Source: an uncultured Nitrospira sp.
Lineage (GTDB): Bacteria > Nitrospirota > Nitrospiria > Nitrospirales > Nitrospiraceae
Reading direction: 5' to 3'
Assembly: GCA_964412445.1 (NCBI GenBank)
Contig: CAYPOR010000001.1
Span: 15,586-79,585, forward strand
DNA length: 64,000 bases
Made by a program: the position numbers and the translations under genes. The first letter of the stretch is position 1; each line of letters begins with the position of its first letter. Shown in pieces: positions 4,168-23,688 of this stretch. Below the pieces are notes generated by a model. It made no database searches, was not told the DNA's origin, and was given only the letters and a program-made list of their open reading frames with translations.

Positions 4168-4170
4168 CAA

Positions 4171-5894: not shown

Positions 5895-5896
5895 GA

Positions 5897-7624
5897 CTAG
5901 ATAATCTGATTGACCAAGCGCTCTTCCGTCTGCCGGCCGCGCCGGAAGGACGACACGCCGACGACCTGCTCGGGGTGATGATCGAGCAGCTTCAACCACT
6001 CTTCCGCCGCGTCGTCCGGCGGCAGCATCTCCCCTTCGCGGAATTCTTCCGACACAGAATCGGTGAGGTCCTTTGCGATGAGCCCCGCCGACTGTCCCGA
6101 CTGGATCATGCGATCGATCGCTTTTTCCTTCGCGCGCTGGACGATCGAGGAAAGAATCGCCCCGCTCACGAGATCGCCCCGATAGAGCACCTTGTGTTGG
6201 CCGCTCCGGAGCCGGATCGAGAGGAGGCGGTTCTCGTCCATCCGTTTGTAAATCTGTTCGATGACCTCTTCCACCAGCGAGGCAACGGCCTTCGCCTTGT
6301 CCCCGCCCTGCCCGGCAACGAGCGCCTGATCCAGCGGCAATTCGTTCGTGAGATACACCTTCAGAATCTCCGCAGCCGACTCGCGATTCGGACGGCTAAC
6401 CTTGATCTTGCGGTCGATCCGCCCGGGCCGCAGGACCGCGGGATCGATCAGATCCGGCCGGTTCGACGCGAGAATGATCACGACATCCCGCAGCGATTCA
6501 ATCCCGTCCATCTCGGAGCAGAACATCGGCACCAGCGTGCTCGAAATATTGAACGAGCGCGACGCCCGTCTGGTTCCCAGAATCGACTCGGCCTCGTCGA
6601 TGAAAATAAACGGCAGCGCGCCCTCGCGCCGGCGGGCTCTGGCCTTGGCAAAGAGATCGCGAACCATGCGCTCCGACTCGCCGAGCCACATGTTCAGAAT
6701 TTCAGGCCCTTTGATATGGAGGAATGCGCCGCCGGTGATCGCGGGCAGCGTCTCAGTCTTTCCGCCGGCCGCCATCGACTCGCTCACAAGCTTCGAGAGG
6801 CTGGCGGCGGCAGCCTGGCCGATCAGTGTTTTCCCGCAGCCCGGAGGGCCGTAGAGCAGAAAGCCCTTCGGCTGCGTGAACTTGAACTGCTGAAACGTCT
6901 CCGCGTGCATCAGCGGATATTCGATCGCCTTGCGGATGGCGCTGATCGCGTCCTGCTGGCCGCCGATCTGCTCCCAGCTCACCGTCGGCACTTCATCGAG
7001 GACATGGGTCTTGGCTTTGCGGTCTTCCAGCTTCTCGATCGCGATCCGGTGCCCCGGATCGATCCGCAGTTCATCTCCGGCCTTCAACTCCACCCCGACC
7101 AGGTCGCTCGACCGTTGCAGGATCAGCGACTGGCGGCCCATCTCCTGCTCGAAGCGCAGACGGCCATCCGGTAATGCTTCCGTCAGCTTGAGCACCGGCC
7201 CGTTCAGGTCATAGCCCAGCGTCTTGATGACCGCATAGGCTTCGTTCACCAGAATCTGCGCGCCGATCTTCAACTCAGCGGCAGCCACACGAGGATCCAC
7301 ATTCGCGTAATACTCGGCCCCGCCGACCACGATCCTGGCCAGGCCCTCGCCCGGCAGATCGAGCAACGTGCCGATCCGGTTGGCCGGCGCCGTCAGCTTC
7401 GCCACGACCTCGCTGATTTTTTTATATTCGGCTTCCCGCTGCTGCTGACCGGCGGCGGCCAGCATGACGGAGTGCCGGAGTTTGTAGAGAATCTGCTGAC
7501 GGGGATCGTTCTCAGGAAAGGAGGCCAGGCACTGCTCGATGAGATCGAGGGGGTCTGCGGTCGCCTGCGCCGGTCGCTTCGCTGCTCCGGCCTGCCCTGT
7601 ATCGTCTGGTCGATGGTCGCTCAT
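5897..7624 (-). CDS. arc: Proteasome-associated AAA ATPase (ARC/Mpa family)
   Basis: N-terminal coiled coil, interdomain OB-like region, Walker A GPPGCGKT, Walker B FIFIDEAE, IILASNRPDLIDPAVLRPGRIDRKI. Confidence 0.92.
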   Translation of the reverse strand: MSDHRPDDTGQAGAAKRPAQATADPLDLIEQCLASFPENDPRQQILYKLRHSVMLAAAGQQQREAEYKKISEVVAKLTAPANRIGTLLDLPGEGLARIVVGGAEYYANVDPRVAAAELKIGAQILVNEAYAVIKTLGYDLNGPVLKLTEALPDGRLRFEQEMGRQSLILQRSSDLVGVELKAGDELRIDPGHRIAIEKLEDRKAKTHVLDEVPTVSWEQIGGQQDAISAIRKAIEYPLMHAETFQQFKFTQPKGFLLYGPPGCGKTLIGQAAAASLSKLVSESMAAGGKTETLPAITGGAFLHIKGPEILNMWLGESERMVRDLFAKARARRREGALPFIFIDEAESILGTRRASRSFNISSTLVPMFCSEMDGIESLRDVVIILASNRPDLIDPAVLRPGRIDRKIKVSRPNRESAAEILKVYLTNELPLDQALVAGQGGDKAKAVASLVEEVIEQIYKRMDENRLLSIRLRSGQHKVLYRGDLVSGAILSSIVQRAKEKAIDRMIQSGQSAGLIAKDLTDSVSEEFREGEMLPPDDAAEEWLKLLDHHPEQVVGVSSFRRGRQTEERLVNQII

Positions 7625-7650
7625 AGCAATCTCCAGGTTGGTCAGGCGTC

Positions 7651-7659
7651 ATCATAACA
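7651..7659 (-). promoter_or_regulatory. Possible extended -10 promoter for arc operon
   Basis: Minus strand TGtTATGAT about 27 nt upstream of the arc ATG. No recognisable -35. Confidence 0.3.
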
Positions 7660-7686
7660 ACATGTCGAAGCCGGACGCTACCGGCG

Positions 7687-8826
7687 TCAGTTGACCGCCT
7701 GGAGGGTAAGGGAGAGCTGCTGCCGTTTGTTCGCGCGGAGAATCTCGAGCGTCACCTGATCGCCGACCTTATGCGCCTCCATGACATCCATCATGTCGTC
7801 GATCGTCTCGACCGGCTTCCCGTCGATGGCGACCACGATGTCGCCGAGTTCGATCCGGCCGGCCTGCGTCTCCCGCGCGCCCCGCAGCCCGGCGCGATCG
7901 GCACTCCCGCCGCGCGCCACCTTCCCGATCACCAGCCCCTTGATGCCCCACCGTTTGACGATGGAATCAGGCACCAGCGACACGCCCAATCCCGGCCTGA
8001 TGAGCTTCCCGTGCTTGATCAGCTCCGGCACGATACGATTCACCGTGTCCACCGGAACCGCGAACCCGATGCCGGCATAGGCGCCGCTGGGACTGACGAT
8101 TTGCGTGTTCACGCCGATCAGCCGCCCGCTGCTGTCGAGCAGCGGCCCGCCGGAGTTGCCCGGATTGATCGCCGCGTCGGTTTGTACCACGCCCTCGATC
8201 GTCCGGTTCGACATCGACTTGATGGTCCGTCCCAGCGCGCTCACCACCCCCGTCGTCAGGGTATGGTCCAGCCCGAAGGGATTGCCGATCGCCAGGACTT
8301 TCTGCCCGACCCGCAAATCGTGCGACGCGCCGATCGCCAGCGGCTCCAGCAGAGTCTCCGGAACCTTGATCTGGAGCACCGCCAGGTCATGATCCGGATC
8401 GGCCCCCACGATCTTGGCCTGGTGCTCGCTCCGGTCGGCCAGCGTCACCTTGATCGCATCGGCCCCGTAGATGACATGAAAATTTGTGACGATATAGCCC
8501 TGCTTGCTCCAGATAAATCCGGAGCCGGAGCCCTGCGGGACTTCCATCGTATCGAAGGACCAGATGTCGCGTTGAATGGCGGTATTGGCGATGAAAACGA
8601 CCGACTTGGTGGCCCGCTCGAACACCGCCATGGTCGCGCGCTCGTCCGGGCTGAGTTCGGCCGGGGCGGGCGTCACCGGCCTGGGTCTGCCATCCGCGCC
8701 GTCGTACGCCCCGCCGAGCGGTTTGCCCCACTCGGCTCCCGTGGCCCATGCGCCACAGGCCAGCACGGCGGCACCCGCTGTCGCGCGCACAAGCCCTCGC
8801 ATGACGGACCGCAGCCTCATGATCAC
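7687..8826 (-). CDS. HtrA/DegP-family periplasmic serine protease with one PDZ domain
   Basis: Signal/TM segment; triad motifs VTNFHVI, DHDLAVL, INPGNSGGPL; C-terminal PDZ (GLVIGKV...AGL...GDIVVAIDG). Confidence 0.9.
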   Translation of the reverse strand: MIMRLRSVMRGLVRATAGAAVLACGAWATGAEWGKPLGGAYDGADGRPRPVTPAPAELSPDERATMAVFERATKSVVFIANTAIQRDIWSFDTMEVPQGSGSGFIWSKQGYIVTNFHVIYGADAIKVTLADRSEHQAKIVGADPDHDLAVLQIKVPETLLEPLAIGASHDLRVGQKVLAIGNPFGLDHTLTTGVVSALGRTIKSMSNRTIEGVVQTDAAINPGNSGGPLLDSSGRLIGVNTQIVSPSGAYAGIGFAVPVDTVNRIVPELIKHGKLIRPGLGVSLVPDSIVKRWGIKGLVIGKVARGGSADRAGLRGARETQAGRIELGDIVVAIDGKPVETIDDMMDVMEAHKVGDQVTLEILRANKRQQLSLTLQAVN

Positions 8827-9245
8827 TCACCGATGATTTGGAAGATCAACTCGCGCGTGCGTGAACGCGTATCGAAATCGACCACGACGATCTGCTGCCA
8901 GGTGCCCAGCAGCAGCGCGCCCCCGGAAAACGGAATCGTGACGGACGGCCCCTGCAACTGCCCGCGAAGGTGGCTGTGCCCGTTGTCTTCGCCGGCATTT
9001 CTCGTATTGTGCTGCCACGCCGGATCGGCCGGCACCGCTCGATCCCAAAACGTTTTCGTGTCGGCGCGAATGCCCGGCTCGTCTTCGATGATCATGACCG
9101 ACGCCGTCGTGTGCTTCACGAACACCGTGACGATCCCGGCGCGCAGACCCGAATCGGCAACCGCGGCCTGCACCGGCTTCGTCAGATTCTCGATGTGCGT
9201 GTCGCCGCGCAGATCCACCCGGGAGACAACGGTGTTCACAGTCAT
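8823..9245 (-). CDS. yjbQ: YjbQ / UPF0047 family protein (secondary thiamine-phosphate synthase family)
   Basis: VFVKHTTASVMIIEDEPG, HN...EDNGHSHLR, LLLGTWQQIVVVDFD. Start at 9245 (MTVNTVVSR). Confidence 0.85.
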   Translation of the reverse strand: MTVNTVVSRVDLRGDTHIENLTKPVQAAVADSGLRAGIVTVFVKHTTASVMIIEDEPGIRADTKTFWDRAVPADPAWQHNTRNAGEDNGHSHLRGQLQGPSVTIPFSGGALLLGTWQQIVVVDFDTRSRTRELIFQIIGE

Positions 9246-9246
9246 G

Positions 9247-10113
9247 TCAATGCTCCATCCGGCGCAGAAACTTCCGCTCGGCCGGCGAGAGACGGCAGCC
9301 GCGCGCCTCTTCCAGCACCCGATCGAACTCGCCGCCGGCGGCCAATCCACGCAACGCCGACATCACCGTCCGGCTCAAGATACCTTCCCGCTGCAACGTC
9401 TCCAGATAGGCAAACGCATCGGCGAGCGTTTCCTTCTTGCGCACGTAGTAATCGCGCCCGCGCTGCTGATTGCTGTAAGCCTCGAACTGTTCGCAGGCGA
9501 CCAGGATTTCCGCCAACTGCTTCACCCAGGCCGGAGCCGCAGCCAGTTTTTCAGGATAATAATAGTAGAGCATCACCCGCTGCATCCAGGGCTCCCACCG
9601 CACGCCCATCCGCGTGATCTCGCCGCGCACGGTCCGCAGCCGGCGCGAGAGCCGCCGCGCATAGCCCAGCCGCATCTCGACCTGCTCGCTTGCCCAGGCC
9701 GTCATGGGAATGCCTGCCGCATCGAGATCGCCGCGATACCGGCGCAAGAACGCTTCGGTCTCGCGTCCATACCGGGTTTCCGGATGCAGGGCCCGCCATT
9801 CGCGCGGCCTGGTCGGAATCCCCTGCGCTTTCGCCCAGGACCAGATTTTCCCGAACAGCGCCCGGTCCAGGCCGGCCCGGCCCAAATCGTGAAGCACGCA
9901 GGCAATCTGATACTGGCGGACCCGCGCGGAATCATGGCCCAGCGCGGCCGCCACCGCGGCACACATGCGCGCAGTGCGCACGGCATGCGGCCGGTCGTAT
10001 CCACGAATGATGCGGCGCGGAATCGTCGGATGCGGATAGTCGTAGAGACGCAGCAGCCGGGCGACGAGAGCGTTGGAAATCAACAACGGAGCGCGAGACG
10101 TGTTGACTGTCAT
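9247..10113 (-). CDS. HD-domain protein (degenerate HD-GYP-like phosphohydrolase)
   Basis: HAVRTARMCAAVA and ACVLHDLGRAG give the H...HD pattern. C-terminal EILVACEQFEAY resembles IxAVADxFDA; no GYP motif. Confidence 0.7.
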   Translation of the reverse strand: MTVNTSRAPLLISNALVARLLRLYDYPHPTIPRRIIRGYDRPHAVRTARMCAAVAAALGHDSARVRQYQIACVLHDLGRAGLDRALFGKIWSWAKAQGIPTRPREWRALHPETRYGRETEAFLRRYRGDLDAAGIPMTAWASEQVEMRLGYARRLSRRLRTVRGEITRMGVRWEPWMQRVMLYYYYPEKLAAAPAWVKQLAEILVACEQFEAYSNQQRGRDYYVRKKETLADAFAYLETLQREGILSRTVMSALRGLAAGGEFDRVLEEARGCRLSPAERKFLRRMEH

Positions 10114-10159
10114 GTGTTGTGCAACCGGAAGGACATCGAAATCGACATCGACTGCGGCG

Positions 10160-10189
10160 AGAATAGCGTCAGGCGAAACGAGGTGTCAA
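10160..10189 (-). promoter_or_regulatory. Sigma70-type promoter upstream of HD-yjbQ-htrA genes
   Basis: Minus strand TTGACA-N18-TATTCT, about 47 nt before the ATG at 10113. Confidence 0.55.
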
Positions 10190-10287
10190 GACAACGCCCC
10201 CGTCCCGGGACTCGATCAATTCATCGATTCTTGCTATGCTGCGCCGTGTCCTTCCGTAATCGATTCTCCCGAGATCCGAGGCGCGCC

Positions 10288-10926
10288 ATGACCTGCACAA
10301 AACCGCCGTTCACGCTGCTGGCCGGCCTGGCGCTGTTCGCCGCGGCCATCGGGTACGGGACGGATTCGCCGGCATCCCCGTTCGAGCAGCTCACCGATCT
10401 GACCGGAAAGGTCCCGGTCATCGTCACCCTGACGGGACGCGACAATTTTACGAGCGAATACCGCTACGACGTCAGCGTCCGCAATCTGACCGCCGATCCG
10501 CTGATCGCCGACTCGCTGCTCGTCGTCCTCGATAAAATTACGAACCTGGCCGGAGAAGACCATGAGGCCCTGACGAACGAACCCTTCCTCAACCGGTTCG
10601 ACGTCCTCGGACAGGATGGCGCAACCGACGACGGCAAACCCTTCTTCCGCATTCCACCCGGCAGCACCGCGGACATCGCTTCACAGACCACCAGCCGCGC
10701 CGCCTCCGTCCGGATCCGCAACCGGGACTACGTCGCCGTCTTCACGCCGGTCTTCAAAGTCTACGGCAACAAACGGCCGCCGCCCGAACCGAAACAGCCG
10801 GCCGTCCAGGCGCAGCCCGCTCCCCCTCAACGCCAGACGGACAAGCAGACCGAACGATTGCTCCAGTTACTGCTTAAGAAGGGCGTCATTACGGAAGAGG
10901 AGTGGCGCAAAGCCAATCAACCATGA
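10288..10926 (+). CDS. Exported hypothetical protein with SHOCT-like C-terminal tail
   Basis: Signal-peptide-like MTCTKPPFTLLAGLALFAAAIG; Pro/Gln linker; tail LLQLLLKKGVITEEEW. This is the real part of the 1051-aa track ORF. Confidence 0.7.
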   Translation: MTCTKPPFTLLAGLALFAAAIGYGTDSPASPFEQLTDLTGKVPVIVTLTGRDNFTSEYRYDVSVRNLTADPLIADSLLVVLDKITNLAGEDHEALTNEPFLNRFDVLGQDGATDDGKPFFRIPPGSTADIASQTTSRAASVRIRNRDYVAVFTPVFKVYGNKRPPPEPKQPAVQAQPAPPQRQTDKQTERLLQLLLKKGVITEEEWRKANQP

Positions 10927-11424: not shown

Positions 11425-11433
11425 TGCTATAAT
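11425..11433 (+). promoter_or_regulatory. Extended -10 sigma70 promoter for TPR/activator operon
   Basis: TGcTATAAT about 40 nt upstream of the ATG at 11474, followed by GGGAGG. Confidence 0.5.
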
Positions 11434-11473: not shown

Positions 11474-12748
11474 ATGTCTCGTCGCATGGTATCCGTGGCC
11501 ATCCTTATTGTCCCGCTGTTCGGTGCACTTCCCGGTGAGCCGTTCGCTCAAACTGCGGACGAACAGATGGCCGCACCGCCGACGCCCGAATCTCCCTCCC
11601 CCGTTCTCAATGCGGATCCCGATCCGGCCAGCCAACATCCGGTACAAGACGAACACCGCCTCGCCGAATCGACCGGGCAGGCGCGCACCGATGCGGTCGC
11701 CGAGCTGAGCGAGCTGCGCGGCGCCGTCAGAACGTTCCCGGCCGACGCGGCGGCGCGCTTGCAATTGGCGCAAGGGCTCTATCGCGTCGGCGACCTCGAC
11801 GCCGCGCTCGACGAATGCCGCATCGCGCTCAAACTGCAGCCGAATCATCCCGAGGCGCTGCTGCAACTCGGCATCGTCTTCATGACGAAACAGGACGGGC
11901 ATGCCGCCGCCACCGCCCTGATGGAGGCCATTCTCCTCAACCCCGAACTCACCCATGCGCACTACAGTCTCGGCAGCGTCCAGTACTCGCTCGGCAACCT
12001 CAAAGCCGCGGCGCAATCCTACCGGCGGGCGCTCGAACTGCAGCCGCACTTCCCCGACGCCCGCTATCGGCTCGCGCTGGTGTTGAAGCTGACGAATCGC
12101 GATCAGGAAGCGGCGCAGTTCATGGAAGAAGCGGCCGCCGGCGGAGTCCCGCAGGCGCAATTCTTTTCAGGGAACGCCTACAAAAGCGGCCAGGGTGTCG
12201 CGAAGGATCTCGGGCGGGCCGTGTTCTGGTGGACCAGAGCGGTTGAATTCGGCCACCAGCAAGCGGCGGATGCCCTCGTGAAACTCCGGCGGCAGGCGCT
12301 GGCGGCCGATCGGACCGATCGACGGCGCAACGAGGCACTCGAAGGGTTTCGCGCCTACCGCGTCCTGCTCTGGGAAGAATTCCCGGACTACAGTCGCTCA
12401 GGAGACAGCGACACGGTGGGCGTTGCGCTGCGTAAAGACAACCGGACCGATGTCGCGGTCCCGGTGCTCCTTCAAGAAAGCTATGCGCTGAGCGACGTCG
12501 CGCTGGCCGAACTCGCTGGACTGTACGAAGCCGGATGGGCCGGGCATCTCGCGCCCTTCGACAAAAAGATTTTCACCTGCATCGAGACCCTCGCCGGTGA
12601 GGGCTTCGCGCCGGCCAAGAAAGCGCTCGCGCGCATCCACGGCCTGGGCCTCGGGGTGGCTCCGGATCGGGTCAAAGCGAAAGCCTCGCTCAAAGGCCTC
12701 CCGAAGCCGGACGCAACCGCGCTGATCGACGAACTGGGCCTCCGATAA
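11474..12748 (+). CDS. Secreted tetratricopeptide / SEL1-repeat protein
   Basis: Signal-peptide-like N-terminus. TPR repeats (ARLQLAQGLY...DAALDECRIALKLQPNH; AHYSLGSVQY...AAQSYRRALELQP); SEL1 repeats (AQFFSGNAYKSGQGVAKDLGRAVFWWTRA). Confidence 0.85.
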   Translation: MSRRMVSVAILIVPLFGALPGEPFAQTADEQMAAPPTPESPSPVLNADPDPASQHPVQDEHRLAESTGQARTDAVAELSELRGAVRTFPADAAARLQLAQGLYRVGDLDAALDECRIALKLQPNHPEALLQLGIVFMTKQDGHAAATALMEAILLNPELTHAHYSLGSVQYSLGNLKAAAQSYRRALELQPHFPDARYRLALVLKLTNRDQEAAQFMEEAAAGGVPQAQFFSGNAYKSGQGVAKDLGRAVFWWTRAVEFGHQQAADALVKLRRQALAADRTDRRRNEALEGFRAYRVLLWEEFPDYSRSGDSDTVGVALRKDNRTDVAVPVLLQESYALSDVALAELAGLYEAGWAGHLAPFDKKIFTCIETLAGEGFAPAKKALARIHGLGLGVAPDRVKAKASLKGLPKPDATALIDELGLR

Positions 12749-12753: not shown

Positions 12754-15372
12754 ATGCTCGACCGGCACACACTCTGGCGGTTCTTCATTACCTCGCTGCC
12801 GCTCCAGGCGCTTACGATCGGACTCCTCGCCGCCGTGTCAAGCCACCTGCTCTGGCTCGCCGCCCCCGCGACCTTCACCGCCCTCGACTGGACCGCCTAC
12901 GACACCTGGCTGCGCCATCGCGCACGCATTGCTGCGAGTCCCGCCCTGACGATCGTCGTACGCGACCCTGCAAGCAGCGGGCAGTTCGGAACCGGGCCGT
13001 TGGACCGGGCCGTCCTGGCTCAACTGATCGCCGCCGCCCATGACGCGGGGGCCGCCGCCATCGGTCTCGACCATCGTCTCGACCATGCCAGTCCTGCGCA
13101 TCTGGGCGGAGCCGCCAGCGATGCGCTGCTCCTGGAGGCCATCAACACCGCCGGCCGCGTCGTGACCGTCTACGATGAAGAAGCCCCGCTGGCATCGGAT
13201 TCAATTATTCAAGGACACCTCGCCCTGTCCTCTCACAGCGATCACGTGGCCCGCGCCGTTCCGCTCTTCATCGAACAAGGCTCCCGAATGACGCCGTCGT
13301 TCGGACTGGCGTTGTTTGCAAGCGCGACGAATCAGCCGCCGGCCGGCGCGACCGGCGACACACAGCTCATCAACCCGGTCGGCGGAGGTACATTGACCGA
13401 CTTGCCGGCCATCCCGCTGTCGTCGGTATGGAACGCCCTCCAACAGCACGATACGGCCGCCCTCGACGGATGGTTCAAAGGCCACGTCGTGACCATTCTG
13501 TCGCAGGCCTCCGCCTCGACACCCTGGCTGCTGCCGACCGGGCAATCCGTCGACGGCATGACCGCACACCTTCATCTCCTCAACAACCTGCTCACCGGCG
13601 ACCGGCTCTGCCGGATCGGGGCCGCCGGACGCGGCAGTCTCGCCATCGTCGTCGCGGCCCTCGTCGCCTGGTGCCTGCTGTACTTCCGCGGAACGGCCAG
13701 TCTGCTGCTCGCGGCCGGCGCCATTGCACTCTACGGCGCCGTCGCCGCCGCCGCCCTCGGCGGACTGCATCTCGTGCTGCCGGTCGCGCTGCCGCTCACC
13801 GCCGCGCTGTTTGTCCTGCTTGGCACCACCGCCTGGACGCACCTGACAGCGGGCCAGCGCATGAGGCTGCTGGAACAGGACATGCTCCGCATCCGACAGG
13901 ACACCGCCGCCGTGCGGGAAGCCCTCGTGCTGCGAGAGAATCGCGCCGAAGCCTTGCAGGAAGATCTGGACGCAGCCAAAACCGCCGCGGCGCACTCAGC
14001 CGGTAAGCGGCAGGATCTCGCCCGCACCACCGAGTCCCTGCGGGCCGAACTGGCCGAGGTGCAGGCGCAGGAACAGGCCGCCCGCGAACAGCTCGCACGA
14101 CTGGAGCGGCAACTGCACGATCTGCGAGCCGCCGGCGACGAATCCCGTGCCCTCGGCGACGCCGCGCTCAACCAGCTGGCCGTCGAATGCCGGCAACTCG
14201 GCATCATCACCGGAGACGCGTCGCTTCTGCGCCTGTTCCGGGATCTGAAGAAAGGCGCCGGATCGCCCCTGACCGTGCTGCTGCTCGGAGAACCGGGCAC
14301 CGGCAAGGAACTCCTCGCCCGCGCGGTCCACCGGCTCAGCCCCAGATCGGGCAAGACCTTCATCGCCGTCAATATGGCGGCCATCTCGCCGGAGCTGTTT
14401 GAAAGCGAACTCTTCGGCCACACCAAAGGCAGTTTCACCGGCGCCACTGTTGACCGGCGCGGCTATTTCGAACTGGCCGATCACGGCACGATCTTTCTGG
14501 ACGAAATCGGCGATCTCCGGCTGGATCACCAGAGCAAACTGCTCCGCGTGCTGCAAGAAAAGTCCTTCTATCGCGTGGGCGCGACGACGCCTATCACCGT
14601 AGATGTGCGCATCGTCGCCGCGACCAATCGCGACCTGCAACGCGGAGTCTCCGAAGGCTGGTTCCGGGAGGATCTCTATTTCCGGTTGAAAGGATTGGTG
14701 TTCAGACTGCCGCCGTTACGGGAGCGCACAGCGGACATCCCCCTGCTGGCCGACGTCTGCCTGGCCGACATCGCGACGCAGATGGGACGGCCGGTCCCGA
14801 AACTTTCCAATGAGGCGCTGCGCCTCTTGACCGAACACGACTGGCCGGGCAACGTCCGGGAGTTCCGCCATGCGCTGGAGCGGGCCGTCGCATTGAGCGA
14901 TGAGCCGGTGCTGACGAAAACGGCCTTCGCCCTGGAAGGATCCGGAGCGCCAGAACCGTCCAGCAGATCGACCCGGACGACTCTGCTGCCGGAGCCCGCC
15001 GGCGACGCCGCGGTGCTGAGCTGCCTGCGGCAGCACAGCTTCGATATGCAGGCCACGGCAAAAACGCTGGGCTGGGACCGCAGCACCGTCACCCAGCGAT
15101 TGAAAGGCCTGTGCTTCCAGGCTCTCGTCGAATCCCGAGGCGACCAGGCCAAAGCCGCGCTCGCCGTCGCCGGCGATCCAAGCCAGTTGAGGACCGTGGA
15201 ACTGAAGCTGCTGGACTACCACAGCCATCTCATGTCCGTCATTGCCCCGTTCACGAGCGCAGACAAAGCACTCCCCGACTGCAAACGACGTTTCAAGAAT
15301 CTACCGGACCGGCATTTCGCCTCGGTCGAATGGCTTGTACGCCGGCACTTTTCCCAAACCTCCCGCCCTTAA
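12754..15372 (+). CDS. Membrane-anchored sigma54-dependent activator: CHASE2 sensor + 3 TM + coiled coil + AAA+ + HTH
   Basis: TM, CHASE2-like region (IVVRD...RAVLAQLIAAAHDAGAAAIGLDHRLD), three TMs, long coiled coil, GEPGTGKELLARAVH, ESELFGHTKGSFTGA, GTIFLDEIGD, FREDLYFRL, WPGNVRE, HTH (ATAKTLGWDRSTVTQRLK). Confidence 0.88.
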   Translation: MLDRHTLWRFFITSLPLQALTIGLLAAVSSHLLWLAAPATFTALDWTAYDTWLRHRARIAASPALTIVVRDPASSGQFGTGPLDRAVLAQLIAAAHDAGAAAIGLDHRLDHASPAHLGGAASDALLLEAINTAGRVVTVYDEEAPLASDSIIQGHLALSSHSDHVARAVPLFIEQGSRMTPSFGLALFASATNQPPAGATGDTQLINPVGGGTLTDLPAIPLSSVWNALQQHDTAALDGWFKGHVVTILSQASASTPWLLPTGQSVDGMTAHLHLLNNLLTGDRLCRIGAAGRGSLAIVVAALVAWCLLYFRGTASLLLAAGAIALYGAVAAAALGGLHLVLPVALPLTAALFVLLGTTAWTHLTAGQRMRLLEQDMLRIRQDTAAVREALVLRENRAEALQEDLDAAKTAAAHSAGKRQDLARTTESLRAELAEVQAQEQAAREQLARLERQLHDLRAAGDESRALGDAALNQLAVECRQLGIITGDASLLRLFRDLKKGAGSPLTVLLLGEPGTGKELLARAVHRLSPRSGKTFIAVNMAAISPELFESELFGHTKGSFTGATVDRRGYFELADHGTIFLDEIGDLRLDHQSKLLRVLQEKSFYRVGATTPITVDVRIVAATNRDLQRGVSEGWFREDLYFRLKGLVFRLPPLRERTADIPLLADVCLADIATQMGRPVPKLSNEALRLLTEHDWPGNVREFRHALERAVALSDEPVLTKTAFALEGSGAPEPSSRSTRTTLLPEPAGDAAVLSCLRQHSFDMQATAKTLGWDRSTVTQRLKGLCFQALVESRGDQAKAALAVAGDPSQLRTVELKLLDYHSHLMSVIAPFTSADKALPDCKRRFKNLPDRHFASVEWLVRRHFSQTSRP

Positions 15373-15518
15373 TACTCCACTGCAAAGACGCCGCTTCAAA
15401 GACCTACAATGACCCCATCGCCCCATCCGGAAGACGCGCTGATGGGCGAAAGCCCTATGCCGGAGCCTCACCTGCCTGACGGCGCATGCAGTCACTTCTT
15501 ACACTCTAAAAACCCCCT

Positions 15519-15598
15519 GCCACAAATCATGGAAACCGTTACTGGAAGCCAACTTTCACCCTCTGCAGAATCGCCACAGATCATGAGGCAGTGTGGCG
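15519..15598. promoter_or_regulatory. Candidate upstream activator sequences
   Basis: Direct repeat GCCACA(A/G)ATCATG at 15519 and 15573 (54 bp apart). The second copy is part of the inverted repeat CGCCACA-N13-TGTGGCG (15572-15598), about 95-175 bp upstream of the sigma54 promoter. Confidence 0.45.
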
Positions 15599-15692
15599 GC
15601 CCAGGCCTACAGCTCGACTGACAACCGGTTCACCAAGCCGGAAACAACCTTGATTATTAGGCTCTTTTCTCATGTCATCTGATTACGTGCCA

Positions 15693-15708
15693 CGGCACCC
15701 GGATTGCA
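15693..15708 (+). promoter_or_regulatory. Sigma54 (-24/-12) promoter
   Basis: CGGCAC-CCGGA-TTGCA matches YGGCAC-N5-TTGCW with exact GG-N10-GC spacing. Lies directly downstream of a sigma54 activator gene. Confidence 0.75.
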
Positions 15709-15766
15709 CAAGTTTCCGCGCCCGCTTAGGACAATATTTATTTTTATTTATTCTTTGGATTTCTTC

Positions 15767-18700
15767 ATGACACCCTCTTCCTACAATAAAGAACTCCGCT
15801 TGACTCAGGCCTCTCTGGCTGTCACGACAACCGCCACCGCTCTGCTGATCTGGTCGACCGGTTCGGTCGCCAGAACAGCCTTCGAACAAGGACAGATCAG
15901 CCATCTGCTGGAAGCCTTGCTCTTCGGAGCCCTGGCCGGATTCCTGGTCTACGGCAATCTGTGTTACCAGTTGGCGCGGCTTGGGCAGCTGAGACGGGAC
16001 GCGGCATTCCGGATGACTGCCGCGCAGCCGGCCAGACCCTTCGATCCCCTGTCAGCTCCGGCCCTCACGGTCCTGGTGCCTTCTTACAAAGAAGAACTCC
16101 CCGTCATCCGCCAGACGCTCCTGTCCGCCGCACTGCAGAACTACCCGAACAAGCGGGTCGTGCTGCTTCTGGATAATCCGCCCGCCCCCAAGACGTTGTC
16201 TGACCGGGCCGAGCTCTGGGCGGCGCGCAATCTCCCCTTTGAATTGCAGACATTGCTTGACGAACCGGCGGCCAGGACGGACCACGCCCGCGCGGCGTTT
16301 CTGGCCAGACGATCGAGCGGCACAGTCACCATGGCCGACGAATGCGTGTGGCTCTCGGATTGTTTCCGGTCGGCCGCCCAATGGTTCGAAACCCAGGCGA
16401 AGCACTTCCCGACCGATTCGCACACCGATGTCTGGTTTGTCGAACAGATACTCAGCCGGCCGGCCGAATCCTGCCGCGAACAAGCCGCCCGATGGTTCGC
16501 CAGACGGAGAGAGCCGGCACCGGCCCCCGACGATCAACTCCTCGCCGGAATCGACGCCGCCTATGCGGAACTGGCCGCCCGTTTCCAGGTCGAGTTCGAC
16601 GTCTTCGAGCGGAAGCAGTACTGCAACCTGTCGCACGAGCCCAACAAGGCGATGAACTTGAACAGCTACCTGGGCCTGATGGGCAAGCGTGTACGCCCCG
16701 TCATGCGCCCGGCGGGGCTTGCGCTGGAAGAGTCCTCCCTGCCGAACGGCAGCCGCCTCATCGCGGATACGCCCTACGTCATCACGCTCGATGCCGACAG
16801 CCTGTTGAAACCTCACTACGCCAGCACCCTGGTGCGGCTGATGGAACAGCCGGACTATGCCCGGGTCGCCGTCGCCCAAACGCCCTACAGCGCCTTTCCC
16901 AACGCACCGGGCGTGCTGGAGCGAACCGCCGGGGCCACGACCGACATTCAATATCTGGTGCACCAGGGCTTCACCCGGTATGGCGCCACCTTCTGGGTCG
17001 GGGCCAATGCCTTGCTGAGAAAGTCGGCGCTCGACGACATCCGCAGCGAATCCGTCGAGGGCGGCCATATTGTTCGCCGCTACATCCAGGACCGGACCGT
17101 CATCGAAGACACCGAATCGACCGTCGATCTCCTCGCCAAAGGCTGGTCCCTGCACAATCACCCGGAGCGGCTGGCCTACAGCGCCACCCCGCCGGATTTC
17201 GGATCACTGGTCATCCAACGGGCCCGTTGGGCCAACGGAGGCTTGATCATTCTGCCCAAGCTGCTGTCGCTCCTGCGCCGCATGCCGAAGCGGATGAGCA
17301 CATTGCCGCAAGCCCTGCTGCAGATTCATTATCTGACCTCGCTCGCCTTCGCGCCATTGAGCGTGCTGCTCCTGCTGATCATCCCCTTTTCCTCCGAGTT
17401 GATGAATCCCTGGATGCCGCTCGCCGCGCTGCCCTACTTCGCGCTCTACGCCCGCGATCTGGCGAAGATCGGCTATCGCCCGTTCCGGGATCTGTTGCGG
17501 GTCTATGCCCTCAATCTGCTGTTGATCCCCATCCACCTCACCGGTGCAATCACGTCGATGCAGCAAGCCATCGCCGGCACGAAGATCCCGTTCCGCCGGA
17601 CACCCAAGATTTCCGGACGAACCAGAACGGCGGGGTTGGATCTGGCCCTGCAGCTGGGGATGGTCCTCACCAGCGTGACCTTGGGGCTCTTCTACGTTTC
17701 CCGGCTGCGATGGATTTCCGGAGCCTTTGCGCTGGCCAACGCCGGCCTCCTGCTTTACGGCATCAGACAATTCATCGGTTTCGCCGAAATGCAGCAGGAT
17801 CTCAGATTGAGCCTCACTGAAACCTTCGACAGCATCACCGGCAGAATACGCACAACCTGGTCGCCGCTCAGCGCCCGATCACTTGCCCCGCTGACCTTCG
17901 CGATGGAACGGAGCAAGGGGTTCGTCCTGCCCGTCCGTGCGCGGATCGCCTCGCGCCAGGCGCTCTGGAGCCTGCTGGTGGTGCTGGAGGCCTTCTCCCC
18001 GGCGCTCGCAACCGGCGAATCGACGCTTCCCCTCAATCCCGTACAAATCGAAAATCGCAAACCCGGCACCGGCGCCTGGATCCTCACCAAGCCGGCACGG
18101 AACCATGAGATCGAGGGCTATGCCTCGGCCACCAGCGTCAACCGGGGCGAAACCCTTCGCTTCTACGTCAATACACTCGCGCCGACCTACCGGCTCACGA
18201 TCTATCGTATGGGGTGGTACGGAGGCCTGGGAGCGCGGCAGATATCCGGCCCGACGGAACTACCGGGCTACCGGCAGCCGGCCCCCGTGCACGATCAGGA
18301 CACCGGATTGATCGAATGCCGGTGGGAACATCCGGCCGTACAGGCAATCCCGACCGGCGGCGAGGGAACGGAGCCCTGGGTATCGGGATACTATCTGGCC
18401 AAATTGACCGCGGAACCCACGGGAGAAGAAAGCTACATCCTGTTCATCGTGCGGGACGACCGGCGGCCTTCGACCTATCTCGTCCAGGCCAGTGTGACGA
18501 CCTATCAAGCCTACAACAATTGGGGCGGCCGCTCGCTCTACTCATTCAACAGCCCCGGAGGCCAGGCCACAAAAGTCTCGTTCAACCGTCCCTACGCAGG
18601 CAGCGCCATTCCGGCCGCGGCCACAGGCACCGGCGCGGGCGATTTCCTGATTTCCAATTCGATTCCGCCCGGCTACCAAGCCTCCCCCGCCGGCTGGGAA

Positions 18701-19474
18701 TACAACATGGTCCGCTGGCTGGAGCAGGAAGGCTACGACGTCACCTACGCCACGAATATCGACGTCCATGTGAAGCCTTCGCTGCTCGCCTCCCACAAAG
18801 CCTTTCTCTCGCTCGGACACGATGAATACTGGACCGGGGAGATGCGACGCCACATCGAGCAGGCGCGCGACCGGGGCCTGCATCTGGGCATCTTTTCATC
18901 GAATACCTGCTATTGGCAAATGCGGCTGGAGCCCAGCCGCCTCACGGGCGAACCGGACCGCACGATGGTCGCCTACAAAGAAAATACGCCGTGGCACGAT
19001 CCCTTTTCGACCGATCAGAATCCGGAGAACGATCACCTCGTGACGACACGCTGGCGCAGCGCCCCCGTGAATCGCCCGGAAGCGGATCTGCTCGGGTCCA
19101 TGTATATCGAAGTCGACCATCCCGTCGACGGCGACTTTGTGATCCAGGATGCCGAGCCCTGGCTGCTGGCGAATACCGGACTCAGTACAGGCTCTCTGCT
19201 CCCCGGCCTGGCAGGCTACGAAGTCGACGGACTGAGTACGTCCAGCCCGGTTGGCACGAGCGTCGTGGCGAGGATGGTCGATAGCCGGACGCCGGGCGCC
19301 GTCACACTCTACCGCGCCGCAAGCGGCGCGCTGGTATTTGCAACAGGATCAATGCAATGGAGCTGGGGGCTCGACGATTACCAGGCCCCGCACCTGCGCA
19401 CGTCCGTGCTAAATCCGGCGGTCCAACAGATCACCAGAAATGTGCTGGCCCGGTTCGCGCACGCAGACGACTGA
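15767..19474 (+). CDS. Processive GT2 polysaccharide synthase fused to a C-terminal N,N-dimethylformamidase large-subunit-like domain
   Basis: GT2 motifs VLVPSYKE, KAMNLN, TLDADS, QTPY, FWVGANALLR, IEDTES, QRARW, then TMs. After a signal-like segment: ENRKPG, IEGYAS..SV..GE, TYQAYNNWGGRSLY, VSFNRPY, LSLGHDEYW, GSMQWSWGLD. The in-frame TTG at 15704 lies inside the promoter, so ATG 15767 is preferred. Confidence 0.85.
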   Translation: MTPSSYNKELRLTQASLAVTTTATALLIWSTGSVARTAFEQGQISHLLEALLFGALAGFLVYGNLCYQLARLGQLRRDAAFRMTAAQPARPFDPLSAPALTVLVPSYKEELPVIRQTLLSAALQNYPNKRVVLLLDNPPAPKTLSDRAELWAARNLPFELQTLLDEPAARTDHARAAFLARRSSGTVTMADECVWLSDCFRSAAQWFETQAKHFPTDSHTDVWFVEQILSRPAESCREQAARWFARRREPAPAPDDQLLAGIDAAYAELAARFQVEFDVFERKQYCNLSHEPNKAMNLNSYLGLMGKRVRPVMRPAGLALEESSLPNGSRLIADTPYVITLDADSLLKPHYASTLVRLMEQPDYARVAVAQTPYSAFPNAPGVLERTAGATTDIQYLVHQGFTRYGATFWVGANALLRKSALDDIRSESVEGGHIVRRYIQDRTVIEDTESTVDLLAKGWSLHNHPERLAYSATPPDFGSLVIQRARWANGGLIILPKLLSLLRRMPKRMSTLPQALLQIHYLTSLAFAPLSVLLLLIIPFSSELMNPWMPLAALPYFALYARDLAKIGYRPFRDLLRVYALNLLLIPIHLTGAITSMQQAIAGTKIPFRRTPKISGRTRTAGLDLALQLGMVLTSVTLGLFYVSRLRWISGAFALANAGLLLYGIRQFIGFAEMQQDLRLSLTETFDSITGRIRTTWSPLSARSLAPLTFAMERSKGFVLPVRARIASRQALWSLLVVLEAFSPALATGESTLPLNPVQIENRKPGTGAWILTKPARNHEIEGYASATSVNRGETLRFYVNTLAPTYRLTIYRMGWYGGLGARQISGPTELPGYRQPAPVHDQDTGLIECRWEHPAVQAIPTGGEGTEPWVSGYYLAKLTAEPTGEESYILFIVRDDRRPSTYLVQASVTTYQAYNNWGGRSLYSFNSPGGQATKVSFNRPYAGSAIPAAATGTGAGDFLISNSIPPGYQASPAGWEYNMVRWLEQEGYDVTYATNIDVHVKPSLLASHKAFLSLGHDEYWTGEMRRHIEQARDRGLHLGIFSSNTCYWQMRLEPSRLTGEPDRTMVAYKENTPWHDPFSTDQNPENDHLVTTRWRSAPVNRPEADLLGSMYIEVDHPVDGDFVIQDAEPWLLANTGLSTGSLLPGLAGYEVDGLSTSSPVGTSVVARMVDSRTPGAVTLYRAASGALVFATGSMQWSWGLDDYQAPHLRTSVLNPAVQQITRNVLARFAHADD

Positions 19475-19549: not shown

Positions 19550-20620
19550 ATGACATCCGGAGCGACACCTCTCCAGACGACCGGACCGCTCCATGGCAGC
19601 CCTGCATCCGCCTCACACTCGGCCCGGTTCGACGTCATGCGGGTCGTCGCCTGCCTGGCGGTCATCCTGCTGCACCTGGCCGCCACCGTCGTGATGGAAC
19701 GCGAATTCCTGGGCAGCATCCACTGGCACATCTCCAATGCCATCGACGCCGCCACCCGCTGGTGCGTGCCGGTGTTCGTCATGCTGAGCGGCGCGCTGCT
19801 GCTCGACCCGCAGAAACACGCAAGCCCGCGCGAGTTCTGGACGAAGCGCATGGGCCGGCTGCTGCCCGCCATGCTCGCCTGGCCCGCCATGTATTTTGCC
19901 TGGCGCGCCTTCTACTGGCATGAGCCGCTCTCGCCCGGCACCATCGCGCACGACCTGGTCGTCGGCCGGCCCTATGTCCATCTCTACTTTTTGTTTCTTA
20001 TCGCCGGGCTCTACCTCGTCACGCCATTTCTGGCGAACACCCTCGGCACACTCAGCCTCCCGCAGCTCCGGCACCTGATTCTGATCATGGCCGGCCTGGC
20101 CATGGGAGCCAACCTGTTCGACTTTCTCGCGTCCAGCGCTTTCACCATGTTCGTGCCCTATCTGACCTACTACCTCGCCGGCTGGTATTGCGCGCGGCGG
20201 TTGCACGATCGCCCAAGCGCCTCCGCGCTGGCCATCGGCCTCGCCGCCGGCCTCACTACCGGACTGACGGCCCTCCTGGTTTCAACCAGAGGATTCGACG
20301 ACCGCTGGGCCTTCTATTTCTATGAGGACTTCAGCCCCACCGTCATGGTCATGGCCGTAAGCCTCTTTCTCCTGACTTTGCAGGGAACGATCCCGCCACG
20401 AATCGAATCTCTCGCCGGGACGCTTGCGCCGCTCACGCTCGGCGTCTACCTGGCCCACCCCATCGTGGTGGAGCTGCTGCGCTACGGCTACTACCTGGCC
20501 ATCCCGATCCTGCTCCGCCCTCCCTACTATGTACCCGTTACGTTCCTCATCACCTGCGCCATCACCTTCAGCCTCGTCGCCCTCATGCAGCGGGTGCCGG
20601 GCCTGCAACGGATCGTCTAG
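19550..20620 (+). CDS. Acyltransferase family 3 (WecH/OafA-like membrane O-acyltransferase)
   Basis: FDVMRVVACLAVILLH, RWCVPVFVMLSGALL, HLYFLFLIAGLYL, TLGVYLAHP; about 10 TM helices. Confidence 0.88.
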   Translation: MTSGATPLQTTGPLHGSPASASHSARFDVMRVVACLAVILLHLAATVVMEREFLGSIHWHISNAIDAATRWCVPVFVMLSGALLLDPQKHASPREFWTKRMGRLLPAMLAWPAMYFAWRAFYWHEPLSPGTIAHDLVVGRPYVHLYFLFLIAGLYLVTPFLANTLGTLSLPQLRHLILIMAGLAMGANLFDFLASSAFTMFVPYLTYYLAGWYCARRLHDRPSASALAIGLAAGLTTGLTALLVSTRGFDDRWAFYFYEDFSPTVMVMAVSLFLLTLQGTIPPRIESLAGTLAPLTLGVYLAHPIVVELLRYGYYLAIPILLRPPYYVPVTFLITCAITFSLVALMQRVPGLQRIV

Positions 20621-20717: not shown

Positions 20718-21224
20718 TTACAGACCTGACGGCTGCCAGGTGGCGGGTTTGAAGTAGGCTCGTGATTGAGTCCCCCTGATGGCGTTACGAACGACGAGAA
20801 AATGCTGTTGGCAGGGCAGGCGGTCGATTTCATCGTCGGTGAAGAAGCGCGCACCGGACGTTTCCTCATGATCCGGACGGGGCGTCCCGCAAATGACACG
20901 AGCGGCGAACACTGTCGTGACGGCGGCAAGTTGATCGCCATTGTCGTAGGTCTTGGAGAAATGTTCCCCGGCGAAGACTCCGAGAATGCGGGTCAACTCC
21001 ACAAACACCCCGGCTTCCTCCCAGGTCTCCCGCACCGCCGCGTCAGACGGCAATTCATGCGGGTCGATAATCCCGCTCGGCACTCCCCAGAGGCCGGAGC
21101 TGAGGTCCTGCACGAGCAACAGCCGCCCCTGATCGTCATAGGCACAGGTTGAAACAACCGGCAACTGCAGCAACTCCGTGCCGATCTTGGAACGGAGGGA
21201 TTTGATGAACTCTGGAATAGGCAT
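20718..21224 (-). CDS. NUDIX hydrolase
   Basis: Nudix box variant SGIIDPHELPSDAAVRETWEEAG; Y.NGDQ motif of the MutT-like group. Confidence 0.85.
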   Translation of the reverse strand: MPIPEFIKSLRSKIGTELLQLPVVSTCAYDDQGRLLLVQDLSSGLWGVPSGIIDPHELPSDAAVRETWEEAGVFVELTRILGVFAGEHFSKTYDNGDQLAAVTTVFAARVICGTPRPDHEETSGARFFTDDEIDRLPCQQHFLVVRNAIRGTQSRAYFKPATWQPSGL

Positions 21225-21352
21225 GAGCGCGACAACCACCAACTTGTTCTGCGTAGGAGCCTACTATTCCGGCCTGAATGGCCTCACATCATAATAGGCA
21301 GTGAATCACTGCACACCCGCCGGATCAGTATACCGTTACGGGAGTTTTCCGT

Positions 21353-21736
21353 TCAGGACGACAGATCACGCAGCGGCCCCGGCTTGCCCTTTTTGCCGAA
21401 ATAGTACCCGGCCGCAATTCCGGCAGCCCATCCGCACACAATCAGAATGGACATGGCATGCGAATCATGCTTATCGCGGAACATAGGAATTACCATCCCC
21501 AACGGCATCGCGCCGCACACAATAAGCATCCAGCCCTGGTTGCCGGAACTGCCGGTCCGTGTGACGGCAAAGGAGAGCGCGAGAAACGGGAGCATCATCA
21601 GCAACTGATACGCCCACGGAGTCCCGGCCCACAAGAGGCCGAAACCAAGAAACGACAGCGCAAAGCCGCCGGCGATCGCGGCAAGCCCGAGCACCATCGG
21701 CTTCCACTGTGTTCGCGGCGCATCCTCTGTCATCAT
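21353..21736 (-). CDS. Small hypothetical membrane protein (about 4 TM)
   Basis: 127-aa ORF with four hydrophobic segments; no family recognised. Confidence 0.65.
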   Translation of the reverse strand: MMTEDAPRTQWKPMVLGLAAIAGGFALSFLGFGLLWAGTPWAYQLLMMLPFLALSFAVTRTGSSGNQGWMLIVCGAMPLGMVIPMFRDKHDSHAMSILIVCGWAAGIAAGYYFGKKGKPGPLRDLSS

Positions 21737-21773
21737 TCCATTCCTACGTAAGCCGGCAGGCCCACTGTCAGGA

Positions 21774-22412
21774 TTAGCCGTTTTTCAACAGCCACACATG
21801 TTCTTTCGCCGGACATTTCCCCTTCAATCCGCCGGGAACATCGGAGCTGACAAGCAACGTGAGGTCGTAGCTATCGGTATAGTGCCGCCGGACTTCGTCG
21901 TCGCTCACGGAAAAAGGCGGGCCGCCTGCCATGCTCTGGTCATATTCGTAAGCAATCACCAGCTGCGGCGCGTTATCGGAAATCTGCACGAGATGCTCCG
22001 CATATCGATCGCGCATCTCTTTGGGCAGAGCCACCAGCGCAGCCCGGTCATAGATGGCATCGACCGGACCAAGCATGTCGCGAGTCACATCAAAGAGATT
22101 GCCAAGAAAGATGTCGACGTTCTGCGCACGGTAACGAGAGACGCGGCCGATCTCGGATATCTTCGGTACCACGCCAAGCCCCGCAAACAACTCCTTCACC
22201 GCAATCTCGCTCAACTCCGCTCCGGCCACTCGATAGCCATGAGACAGCAGCCACGCAATATCCAGAGTCTTCCCGCACAACGGCACAAACACCCGGCTGC
22301 CTTTGGCCAAGGACAGCTCTTTGAAATATTTGACTAGAAAAGGGTTCGCTTCACGTTCGTGAAACGCAATCTCACCCTTCTCCCATCTCGCTTTCCAAAA
22401 ATCCGCATCCAT
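21774..22412 (-). CDS. tpm: Thiopurine S-methyltransferase
   Basis: MDADFWKARW...IAFH, RVFVPLCGKTLD, G.ELSE.AV, YDRAALVALP, GPPFSV. Confidence 0.9.
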   Translation of the reverse strand: MDADFWKARWEKGEIAFHEREANPFLVKYFKELSLAKGSRVFVPLCGKTLDIAWLLSHGYRVAGAELSEIAVKELFAGLGVVPKISEIGRVSRYRAQNVDIFLGNLFDVTRDMLGPVDAIYDRAALVALPKEMRDRYAEHLVQISDNAPQLVIAYEYDQSMAGGPPFSVSDDEVRRHYTDSYDLTLLVSSDVPGGLKGKCPAKEHVWLLKNG

Positions 22413-22546
22413 AAAACCCCTTAGAACGAACTCGCATGTACAGATGATGTAAGGAGTCTTTTATCTCACAACGATGTGCGTAAGTCTCCCTGTTTGCCAG
22501 AATCGCCAATGGTTCCTGTGTGATACCTTTTTCTCTCCTGTTTTCC

Positions 22547-23682: not shown

Positions 23683-23688
23683 GCGCCT

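Follow-up and report, generated by a model that had tools for sequence, protein, structure and literature searches.

A predicted membrane-spanning CHASE2 sigma-54 activator in Nitrospira and its candidate enhancer at a sortase operon

Introduction

The stretch of DNA considered here, 64,000 nucleotides long and hereafter called the window, comes from an uncultured Nitrospira sp. (assembly GCA_964412445.1, contig CAYPOR010000001.1, positions 15,586 to 79,585 of the forward strand). At 12754-15372 it carries a gene for an 872-residue protein in which a CHASE2 sensor domain and several predicted transmembrane (TM) helices precede the ATPase and DNA-binding domains of a sigma-54 activator, and which directly follows a gene for a TPR/Sel1-repeat protein. 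Further downstream on the same strand, a palindrome and a sigma-54 promoter stand before an operon for an OmpA-like protein, a VIT-vWA sortase substrate and a sortase. Comparison of sequences across related genomes leads us to propose, with a probability of roughly 0.6, that the activator and its TPR/Sel1 partner would bind this palindrome and drive this operon.

Results

The activator protein

The activator gene and its partner comprise the following features.

11474-12748, plus strand: TPR/Sel1-repeat protein, 424 residues, with a signal-peptide-like N-terminus (TPR families at E 1e-16; weak Sel1 match)
12754-15372, plus strand: activator gene, 872 residues, in the order TM, CHASE2, three TMs, long helix, sigma-54 AAA+ domain, helix-turn-helix (HTH), tail
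12847-13665, plus strand: CHASE2 domain, residues 32-304, predicted to be periplasmic between TM1 and TM2 (Pfam PF05226, hydropathy, AlphaFold2)
13621-13839, plus strand: three trailing TM helices, residues ~290-362 (hydropathy, AlphaFold2)
13840-14142, plus strand: cytoplasmic helical linker, coiled-coil-like, residues ~363-463 (AlphaFold2 helices)
14206-14934, plus strand: sigma-54 AAA+ domain and lid, residues 485-727 (Pfam; Walker A GEPGTGKE, Walker B FLDEIG)
14428-14445, plus strand: L1 loop GSFTGA, within GHTKGSFTGA
15022-15105, plus strand: Fis-type HTH, residues 757-784 (HTH_8, Foldseek, invariant columns)
15106-15369, plus strand: tail of 88 residues (785-872), four helices packing on the HTH, motif CKRRFKNLPDRHF

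The Pfam model for CHASE2 matches residues 32-304 with 83.8 bits against a gathering cut-off of 26.3, and the domain was found in every one of 120 listed homologues. Four hydrophobic segments are delineated by hydropathy (residues ~10-37, 294-311, 316-335 and 338-360). An AlphaFold2 model, computed from an alignment of 25 family members with a mean predicted local distance difference test (pLDDT) score of 83, places TM1 at residues 15-36, an alpha/beta CHASE2 fold at 65-281 with high confidence and further helices at 290-310 and 314-338. It continues with a helix that runs unbroken from residue 345 up to 414, a second long helix at 419-463, a low-confidence stretch at 462-465 and a disordered linker at 730-749 between the AAA+ domain and a helical C-terminal domain. 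Hydropathy and AlphaFold2 agree on a predicted topology of one TM helix, CHASE2, three TM helices and a cytoplasmic output, in which the N-terminus would lie in the cytoplasm and the CHASE2 domain would face the periplasm. A search by sequence for a solved CHASE2 structure found none, its weak matches being spurious.

The AAA+ domain in the output half of the protein has its motifs complete. Sigma54_activat (PF00158) matches residues 485-648 with 213 bits and AAA_lid_14 matches residues 656-727. GEPGTGKE, DE583-584, TN624-625, R638, R644 and R702 are invariant among the 25 aligned members; Walker A, Walker B, sensor residues and arginine fingers are all unchanged across that alignment. Matches to NCBIfam models such as NifA, NtrC and ZraR start no earlier than the AAA+ domain and score far under the cut-offs, Response_reg has no Pfam match in the protein, and the source genome encodes an RpoN that scores 433 bits, above its cut-off. 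Taken together, these features support the assignment of the protein, as judged from its sequence, to the one-component, membrane-spanning sigma-54 activators without a receiver domain.

An earlier note, made from the letters of this DNA, had already proposed a CHASE2-TM-AAA+-HTH anatomy lacking a receiver, and Pfam, hydropathy and AlphaFold2 all agree with it. The coiled coil of about 100 residues that it placed between membrane and ATPase corresponds to the long predicted helix at 345-414 and 419-463, although coiled-coil-type Pfam matches in this linker are weak. It had also drawn attention to the L1 loop, which reads GSFTGA in place of GAFTGA. The loop is indeed present and fixed in the family, with G559, S560, F561, G563 and A564 invariant in the 25 members and GSFSGA in distant ones. 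We rejected a special meaning of this deviation, however, because GSFTGA occurs in 8 of the ~27 enhancer-binding protein (EBP) domains of the source genome and likewise in the characterised Desulfovibrio regulator DVU3220 (PMC4641369).

A DNA-binding domain with a conserved extension

HTH_8 scores 20.7 bits on the whole protein and 27.2 bits on the C-terminal fragment, the latter being over the cut-off of 22. In Foldseek searches the 37-residue HTH superposes with a root-mean-square deviation of ~1 Å on the DNA-binding domains of NtrC4, NtrC1, ZraR and Fis, and the family alignment shows little or no variation in its recognition helix, RSTVTQRLK. The tail that follows carries the motif CKRRFKNLPDRHF and is conserved in the same alignment through its last helix, and HTH and tail are predicted to form one seven-helix domain (pLDDT 91, predicted template modelling score 0.82). 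This tail is single-copy in the source genome. It has no Pfam match even at E<=10, and neither Foldseek against the PDB nor a PDB sequence profile returned anything significant for the tail or the combined domain, the HTH part alone aligning. The extra C-terminal domain announced by the earlier note is thus conserved and confidently folded, but measures 88 residues rather than about 100.

A CHASE2-type paralogue of 941 residues and 37% identity is encoded at 7148-9973 of locus L183, on contig C5 of the same-genus genome G009, and shares the tail motif (CRKRFKNLPERYH). It has neither a TPR neighbour nor an obvious sigma-54 promoter behind the gene, and for that reason affords no covariation test.

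How widespread is this protein? More than 120 clusters at 65-97% identity have the same Pfam set, the named ones being Nitrospira, and a profile-free search of 1.8 billion representatives yielded dozens of full-length clusters at 31-50% identity, of which the named ones are Nitrospirota, marine lineages included. Scanning one genome per prokaryote species with an HTH-tail profile gave 329 loci; the best 80 of these all belong to Nitrospira or Nitrospiraceae, N. moscoviensis among them. All relatives that bear a name are Nitrospirota. Of 61 evenly sampled Nitrospiraceae genomes, 30 have an orthologue whose match extends as far as the tail. Two of the orthologues (L016 in G005 and L018 in G055) contain one in-frame stop each, TGA and TAG, for which pseudogenes, sequencing errors or recoding are possible explanations. 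In the literature searched, no paper pairs CHASE2 with a sigma-54 activator. The family appears to be unstudied and its annotation only generic; what would be new here is the integral-membrane CHASE2 input on a sigma-54 activator together with the extension of the DNA-binding domain.

A TPR/Sel1 gene travels with the activator

The TPR/Sel1 gene ends 5 nt before the activator ATG. In 27 of the 30 family loci the gene immediately before the activator is a homologue; the other three run into contig ends or give no match. Among the 80 closest loci, every one with sufficient DNA upstream has it as well. Where the gap between the two genes could be measured, at 66 loci, it falls between -4 and 9 nt in 54. 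Co-expression and functional pairing of the two proteins are well supported by this arrangement, which agrees with the coupling noticed in the earlier note, and it is a reasonable inference, there as here, that the TPR/Sel1 protein serves as a periplasmic partner of the activator. Physical contact of this protein with the CHASE2 domain might underlie such a role.

At 11425-11433, ~40 nt before the start of the TPR gene, stands TGCTATAAT, a perfect extended -10 element. It could serve the gene pair as its sigma-70 promoter, although the scan gave no acceptable -35 for it; between 10500 and 21000, a scan for sigma-70 promoters and terminators returned nothing above shuffled expectation.

A palindrome and a sigma-54 promoter precede a sortase operon

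Two exact matches to GGCAC-N5-TTGC in the window sit before genes, at 15694 and at 24229. The second of these belongs to the following group of features.

24107-24124, plus strand: candidate enhancer or upstream activating sequence (UAS), palindrome TGCGGGGCTATCCCCGCA, TGCGGGG-N4-CCCCGCA
24145-24151: extra half-site CCCCGCA beside the palindrome
24228-24243, plus strand: sigma-54 promoter CGGCACTCCGGTTGCT (-24 GG, -12 GC), preceding the OmpA-like/sortase operon
24392-25189, plus strand: OmpA-like peptidoglycan-binding protein, membrane-anchored, PdsO-like (Pfam OmpA, 67 bits)
25286-27379, plus strand: VIT-vWA sortase target protein (TIGR03788, 800 bits, cut-off 552)
27343-27960, plus strand: class GN sortase (TIGR03784, 205.6 bits, cut-off 158)

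The OmpA-like protein scores 60.9 bits with the PdsO model (TIGR03789; cut-off 152) and occupies the same operon position as PdsO. The target protein ends in the sorting signal LPQTAT, followed by a hydrophobic helix and the basic tail RKR, and the sortase retains its His (TGH), Cys (VTC) and Arg motifs. The true start of the sortase is probably the ATG at 27376, which overlaps the stop codon of the target gene (ATGA, 27376-27379); this overlap suggests translational coupling of substrate and enzyme.

The only runs in which the activator region was found are metagenomic DNA runs. Metatranscriptome contigs of relatives span the OmpA-like gene from 24275, 24319 and 24360 and leave out the promoter, which is weak evidence in keeping with transcription beginning just past 24243.

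The palindrome tracks the activator across genomes

In distant members of the family, the activator stop codon, the UAS, a sigma-54 promoter and an OmpA-like gene follow one another within 40-400 nt. The palindrome TGCGGGG-N4-CCCCGCA surfaced from the alignment of 15 such promoters, in which a further CCCCGCA half-site is frequent. A degenerate pattern, GMGGGDNNNTCCCCGCA, was then used to search the 61 genomes, with the reversed pattern as control, and gave ~40 matches, mostly one per genome, as opposed to 5 for the control. Of the 30 genomes with the activator, 23 have a UAS, compared with 8 of the 31 without it (Fisher p=8e-5). For ~20 of these 23, UAS and activator share a contig, the UAS being 0.04-23 kb downstream. 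At 23 of 30 UAS loci the next gene encodes the OmpA-like protein. The one other match in the source genome, on contig C34, is intragenic with no sigma-54 promoter nearby, and was taken as chance.

The architecture of the promoter region is equally regular. Among 49 distinct OmpA-like promoters, 47 have the palindrome with at most two of 14 positions changed and 32 have it perfect; from the first base of the palindrome to the -24 element the distance is 120-124 nt in 43 of the 47, with a mode of 122. Activator and operon also co-occur: of 18 genomes whose sortase target passes the cut-off, 16 contain the activator (p=5e-5), the two exceptions being assemblies of 460 and 700 contigs, one of which has a UAS at a contig edge. 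The recognition helix RSTVTQRLK and the UAS half-site are both near-invariant. Thus, a promoter-plus-palindrome architecture is conserved in these sequences, and we infer that it would belong to the CHASE2 activator.

Several observations weigh against this assignment. The link between activator and UAS consists of synteny and co-occurrence, and the genomes compared, being related, are not independent samples. In 14 of the 30 activator-positive genomes no sortase target exceeds the cut-off, so that the conserved core of the regulon would be the OmpA-like gene and not the sortase pair. Of the 8 activator-negative genomes with a UAS match, most are fragmented assemblies, although not badly in the case of G041 and G004. 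The metatranscriptome contigs come from relatives and are only weakly informative. Moreover, to our knowledge, a hexameric AAA+ ring built from subunits with four TM helices and acting on DNA has no characterised precedent.

Might another regulator bind the palindrome at 24107? Any other of the ~27 EBPs in the source genome could do so, and the UAS is separated from the activator by 8.7 kb and several unrelated genes. The neighbourhood of activator and operon would then be nothing but inherited gene order, and the CHASE2 activator would have its own target elsewhere; the UAS matches in activator-negative genomes fit such a view. Yet the order of activator and operon is kept in members down to 43% identity, despite intervening DNA that varies from 40 nt to 23 kb, and in the loci examined no other EBP gene is conserved beside the sortase operon. 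Because the co-occurrence of activator and UAS is significant and recognition helix and half-site are invariant together, we regard this alternative as improbable.

The promoter directly behind the activator

The first of the two promoter matches raises a different alternative, since it lies immediately downstream of the activator and on the same strand.

15570-15708, plus strand: second sigma-54 promoter region, activator uncertain, with dyad, IHF-like site and promoter
15573-15597, plus strand: dyad GCCACA-N13-TGTGGC in a conserved upstream block
15652-15669, plus strand: IHF-like site GATTATTAGGCTCTTTTC
15693-15708, plus strand: sigma-54 promoter CGGCACCCGGATTGCA, near-consensus -24/-12
15767-19474, plus strand: fusion of a GT2 synthase (processive glycosyltransferase) with a C-terminal DMFA2_C domain (dimethylformamidase-like; Pfam)
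19550-20620, plus strand: AT3 acyltransferase (Pfam), forming with the GT2 fusion an exopolysaccharide-type operon

It is here that the earlier note had sought the target, in the region 15500-15760. On sequence grounds the promoter at 15693 looks genuine: thirteen related genomes keep the CGGCACCCGGATTGCA promoter, the IHF-like site and the upstream block, with the dyad as GCCACA-N13-TGTrGC. The activator might act on the GT2-DMFA2_C/AT3 operon, instead of or besides the sortase operon. The near-consensus promoter with its conserved block and IHF-like site speaks for such a role, as does the persistence of the activator-GT2 arrangement in ~13 related genomes, and co-localisation is the standard criterion in assigning EBP targets (PMC4641369). 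The adjacency is restricted to one clade, however, and most family members have other genes behind the activator. Furthermore, the upstream block (GCCACA-N13-TGTGGC, or TGAGGC...TGGC) is unlike the activator-tracking palindrome, the UAS at 24107, in half-site and spacing.

GT2 homologues also lie elsewhere, 1.5 Mb away from the activator in two complete genomes and on other contigs in two more (G001, G040, G051, G038). There they retain a related TGAGGC...TGGC motif and, ~45 nt ahead of the start codon, a sigma-54 promoter. This points to a regulator that travels with the GT2 gene rather than with the activator. Overall, the evidence suggests that the sortase operon at 24107-27960 is the better-supported target; control of the GT2 operon by the activator seems unlikely, and the target named in the earlier note is probably wrong, or at best incomplete, even though the region does contain a conserved sigma-54 promoter, an upstream block and an IHF-like site.

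As a candidate for the activator's site, the dyad GCCACA-N13-TGTGGC was rejected. A search of the window, the loci and the whole genome found it exact only at the GT2 promoter, it is imperfect even in N. lenta, and it bears no relation to the activator-tracking palindrome. The sequence GCCACArATCATG occurs twice, at 15519-15533 and 15573-15586, 54 bp apart and upstream of the 15693 promoter; the 13 aligned genomes conserve the second copy but not the first. In some Nitrospiraceae, GT2 and DMFA2_C are separate genes, with matches to residues 1-740 or 730-1231 only.

Other features of the window

The stretch that separates the GT2 operon from the sortase operon (20718-23722) has a lower GC content, 0.55 compared with ~0.62, carries NUDIX, TPMT, DUF1398 and small toxin-antitoxin-like genes on the minus strand, and resembles inserted DNA. 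Directly after the sortase gene, a 679-residue protein with a weak Peptidase_C14 (caspase) match of 27.9 bits is encoded on the minus strand at 28182-30221. Upstream of the activator, a cluster of the Pup-ligase/proteasome-ATPase type occupies 997-7624 and is conserved at the equivalent place in N. lenta and a relative of 66% identity. The following gene also belongs to this region.

7687-8826, minus strand: HtrA-like protease gene, conserved

A 1051-residue open reading frame at 7771-10926 is mostly an antisense artefact of GC-rich DNA over this gene and its neighbours; only its last ~210 codons match a conserved hypothetical gene that stands before the HIT gene in relatives.

Discussion

How might a membrane protein switch on a promoter?

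We envision that the activator and the co-translated TPR/Sel1 protein form an envelope sensor. In the off-state, a dimeric module of TM helices and the long helix would hold the AAA+ domains as an inactive dimer, a purely conjectural arrangement drawn in analogy to NtrC1 and DctD, where a helical linker before the AAA+ domain holds the inactive dimer. A periplasmic signal, plausibly damage to the cell wall or envelope, would be passed through the TPR/Sel1 protein or relieved by it, and would repack the helices such that the ring assembles on the palindrome and its flanking half-site. The HTH would bind TGCGGGG-N4-CCCCGCA at 24107-24124, and the assembled activator would switch on the sigma-54 promoter ~122 nt downstream, which in turn would drive expression of the OmpA-like protein, the VIT-vWA sortase substrate and the class GN sortase. 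Signalling from periplasm to promoter might accordingly be direct, as the earlier note had also supposed, and proceed through a membrane-bound activator.

Alternatively, the membrane form might be an inactive precursor, and regulated proteolysis in or after the TM/linker region might free a soluble AAA+-HTH fragment. A free ring would avoid the geometric problem of gathering 24 TM helices at a promoter, and the long linker with its low-confidence stretch at 462-465 might contain a site for cleavage. Nearby, at 7687-8826, lies a conserved HtrA-like protease gene, and a fragment-like public cluster, P0156 (436 residues), matches residues 443-868 only. Short database entries of this kind are possibly just truncated contigs, however, and neither a protease site nor a site-2 protease gene has been linked to the locus. 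The membrane-integral activators CadC and ToxR work while tethered, and the linker is conserved as a continuous helix, which suits conformational signalling. Release by proteolysis therefore strikes us as quite unlikely.

A more far-reaching scenario is that these proteins constitute a distinct class of integral-membrane sigma-54 activators, in which TPR/Sel1 and CHASE2 jointly read peptidoglycan damage, the AAA+ ring assembles under the membrane on an enhancer of fixed phase, and the HTH-plus-tail domain grips the DNA. We offer it tentatively, as a possibility that we doubt more than we believe.

Comparison with known systems

In its catalytic core the activator resembles NtrC1, DctD, ZraR and NtrC4, having a sigma-54 AAA+ domain with all catalytic motifs and the L1 loop. 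It shares with NtrC1 and NtrC4 a C-terminal Fis-type HTH that superposes on their DNA-binding domains, and with NtrC1 and DctD a helical linker ahead of the AAA+ domain. With this group it would also have in common a palindromic enhancer ~120 nt upstream of a -24/-12 promoter. Unlike these proteins, it has no receiver or kinase, takes its input from a periplasmic CHASE2 domain with four TM helices, and carries the extra tail of 88 residues.

The closest counterpart of the operon is found in Shewanella, where the regulator genes likewise stand before those for an OmpA-like protein, a VIT-vWA target of family TIGR03788 and a class GN sortase of family TIGR03784. Expression of pdsO, target and sortase goes up 126-799-fold in Shewanella algae when pdsS, the histidine kinase gene next to them, is mutated (PMC11580497). 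Passages of a study on S. oneidensis describe the adjacent PghKR system (equivalent to PdsS/PdsR) as responsive to peptidoglycan damage and inducing pdsO-SO2195-SO2196, and the target protein as preserving envelope integrity under beta-lactam and D-cycloserine stress; these passages also mention target-sortase pairs in Nitrospira and are silent on their regulation (PMC13712847). The Shewanella regulator is a histidine kinase with an OmpR-type response regulator, whereas the Nitrospira neighbours are the TPR/Sel1 protein and the CHASE2 sigma-54 activator; the Nitrospira operon promoter is of the sigma-54 type, and the OmpA-like protein falls below the PdsO cut-off. Neither PdsS (TIGR03785) nor PdsR (TIGR03787) is found over its cut-off in any of the 18 sortase-bearing Nitrospiraceae genomes, the best scores being 117 bits against 612 and 157 against 336, respectively. 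The simplest reading is that the pair of TPR/Sel1 protein and CHASE2 activator fills, as a non-homologous replacement, the regulatory position of the proteobacterial PdsSR, in line with the link between sigma-54 and envelope functions in general (PMC3162934).

From other CHASE2 receptors, among them adenylate and guanylate cyclases, GGDEF/EAL proteins and histidine and Ser/Thr kinases, the activator differs in its output, which is a transcription activator and not a second-messenger enzyme or a phosphoryl signal, while the sensor and the topology of one TM helix, the domain and three TM helices are shared. ExoR-ExoS/ChvI of Sinorhizobium, in which a periplasmic Sel1-repeat protein binds and restrains a membrane sensor, offers a parallel for a secreted Sel1/TPR protein that acts with a membrane sensor on envelope or exopolysaccharide genes; the ExoS sensor, however, is a histidine kinase, and the interaction of the Nitrospira TPR protein with CHASE2 is putative. 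Similar to ToxR and CadC, the activator combines sensor and DNA-binding activator in one membrane-spanning polypeptide and would have to reach DNA from the membrane. Those proteins have an N-terminal winged HTH, a single TM helix, sigma-70 promoters and no ATPase, whereas the Nitrospira protein has a C-terminal HTH and an oligomeric AAA+ motor that needs assembly.

Implications

Sigma-54 activators are, in textbook terms, soluble ATP-driven rings on DNA, and a membrane version raises the question of how such a ring assembles and whether the protein is cut beforehand. CHASE2 occurs widely as a sensor domain but is not known to bind any ligand, and it is here tied, in the relationship that we propose, to one enhancer and one promoter. 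Given that the proteobacterial counterpart operon answers peptidoglycan damage and protects the envelope, the signal for CHASE2 becomes experimentally approachable. Should the more far-reaching scenario above hold, this orphan domain would gain its first defined physiological signal, and Nitrospira would possess a kinase-free equivalent of the Shewanella PghKR response to cell-wall stress. A corollary would be that one effector module, composed of OmpA-like protein, sortase target and sortase, has been wired to unrelated sensor-regulators in different phyla. The locus may represent a candidate cell-envelope stress circuit for the nitrite-oxidising Nitrospira, which are key to nitrification in biofilters and wastewater plants.

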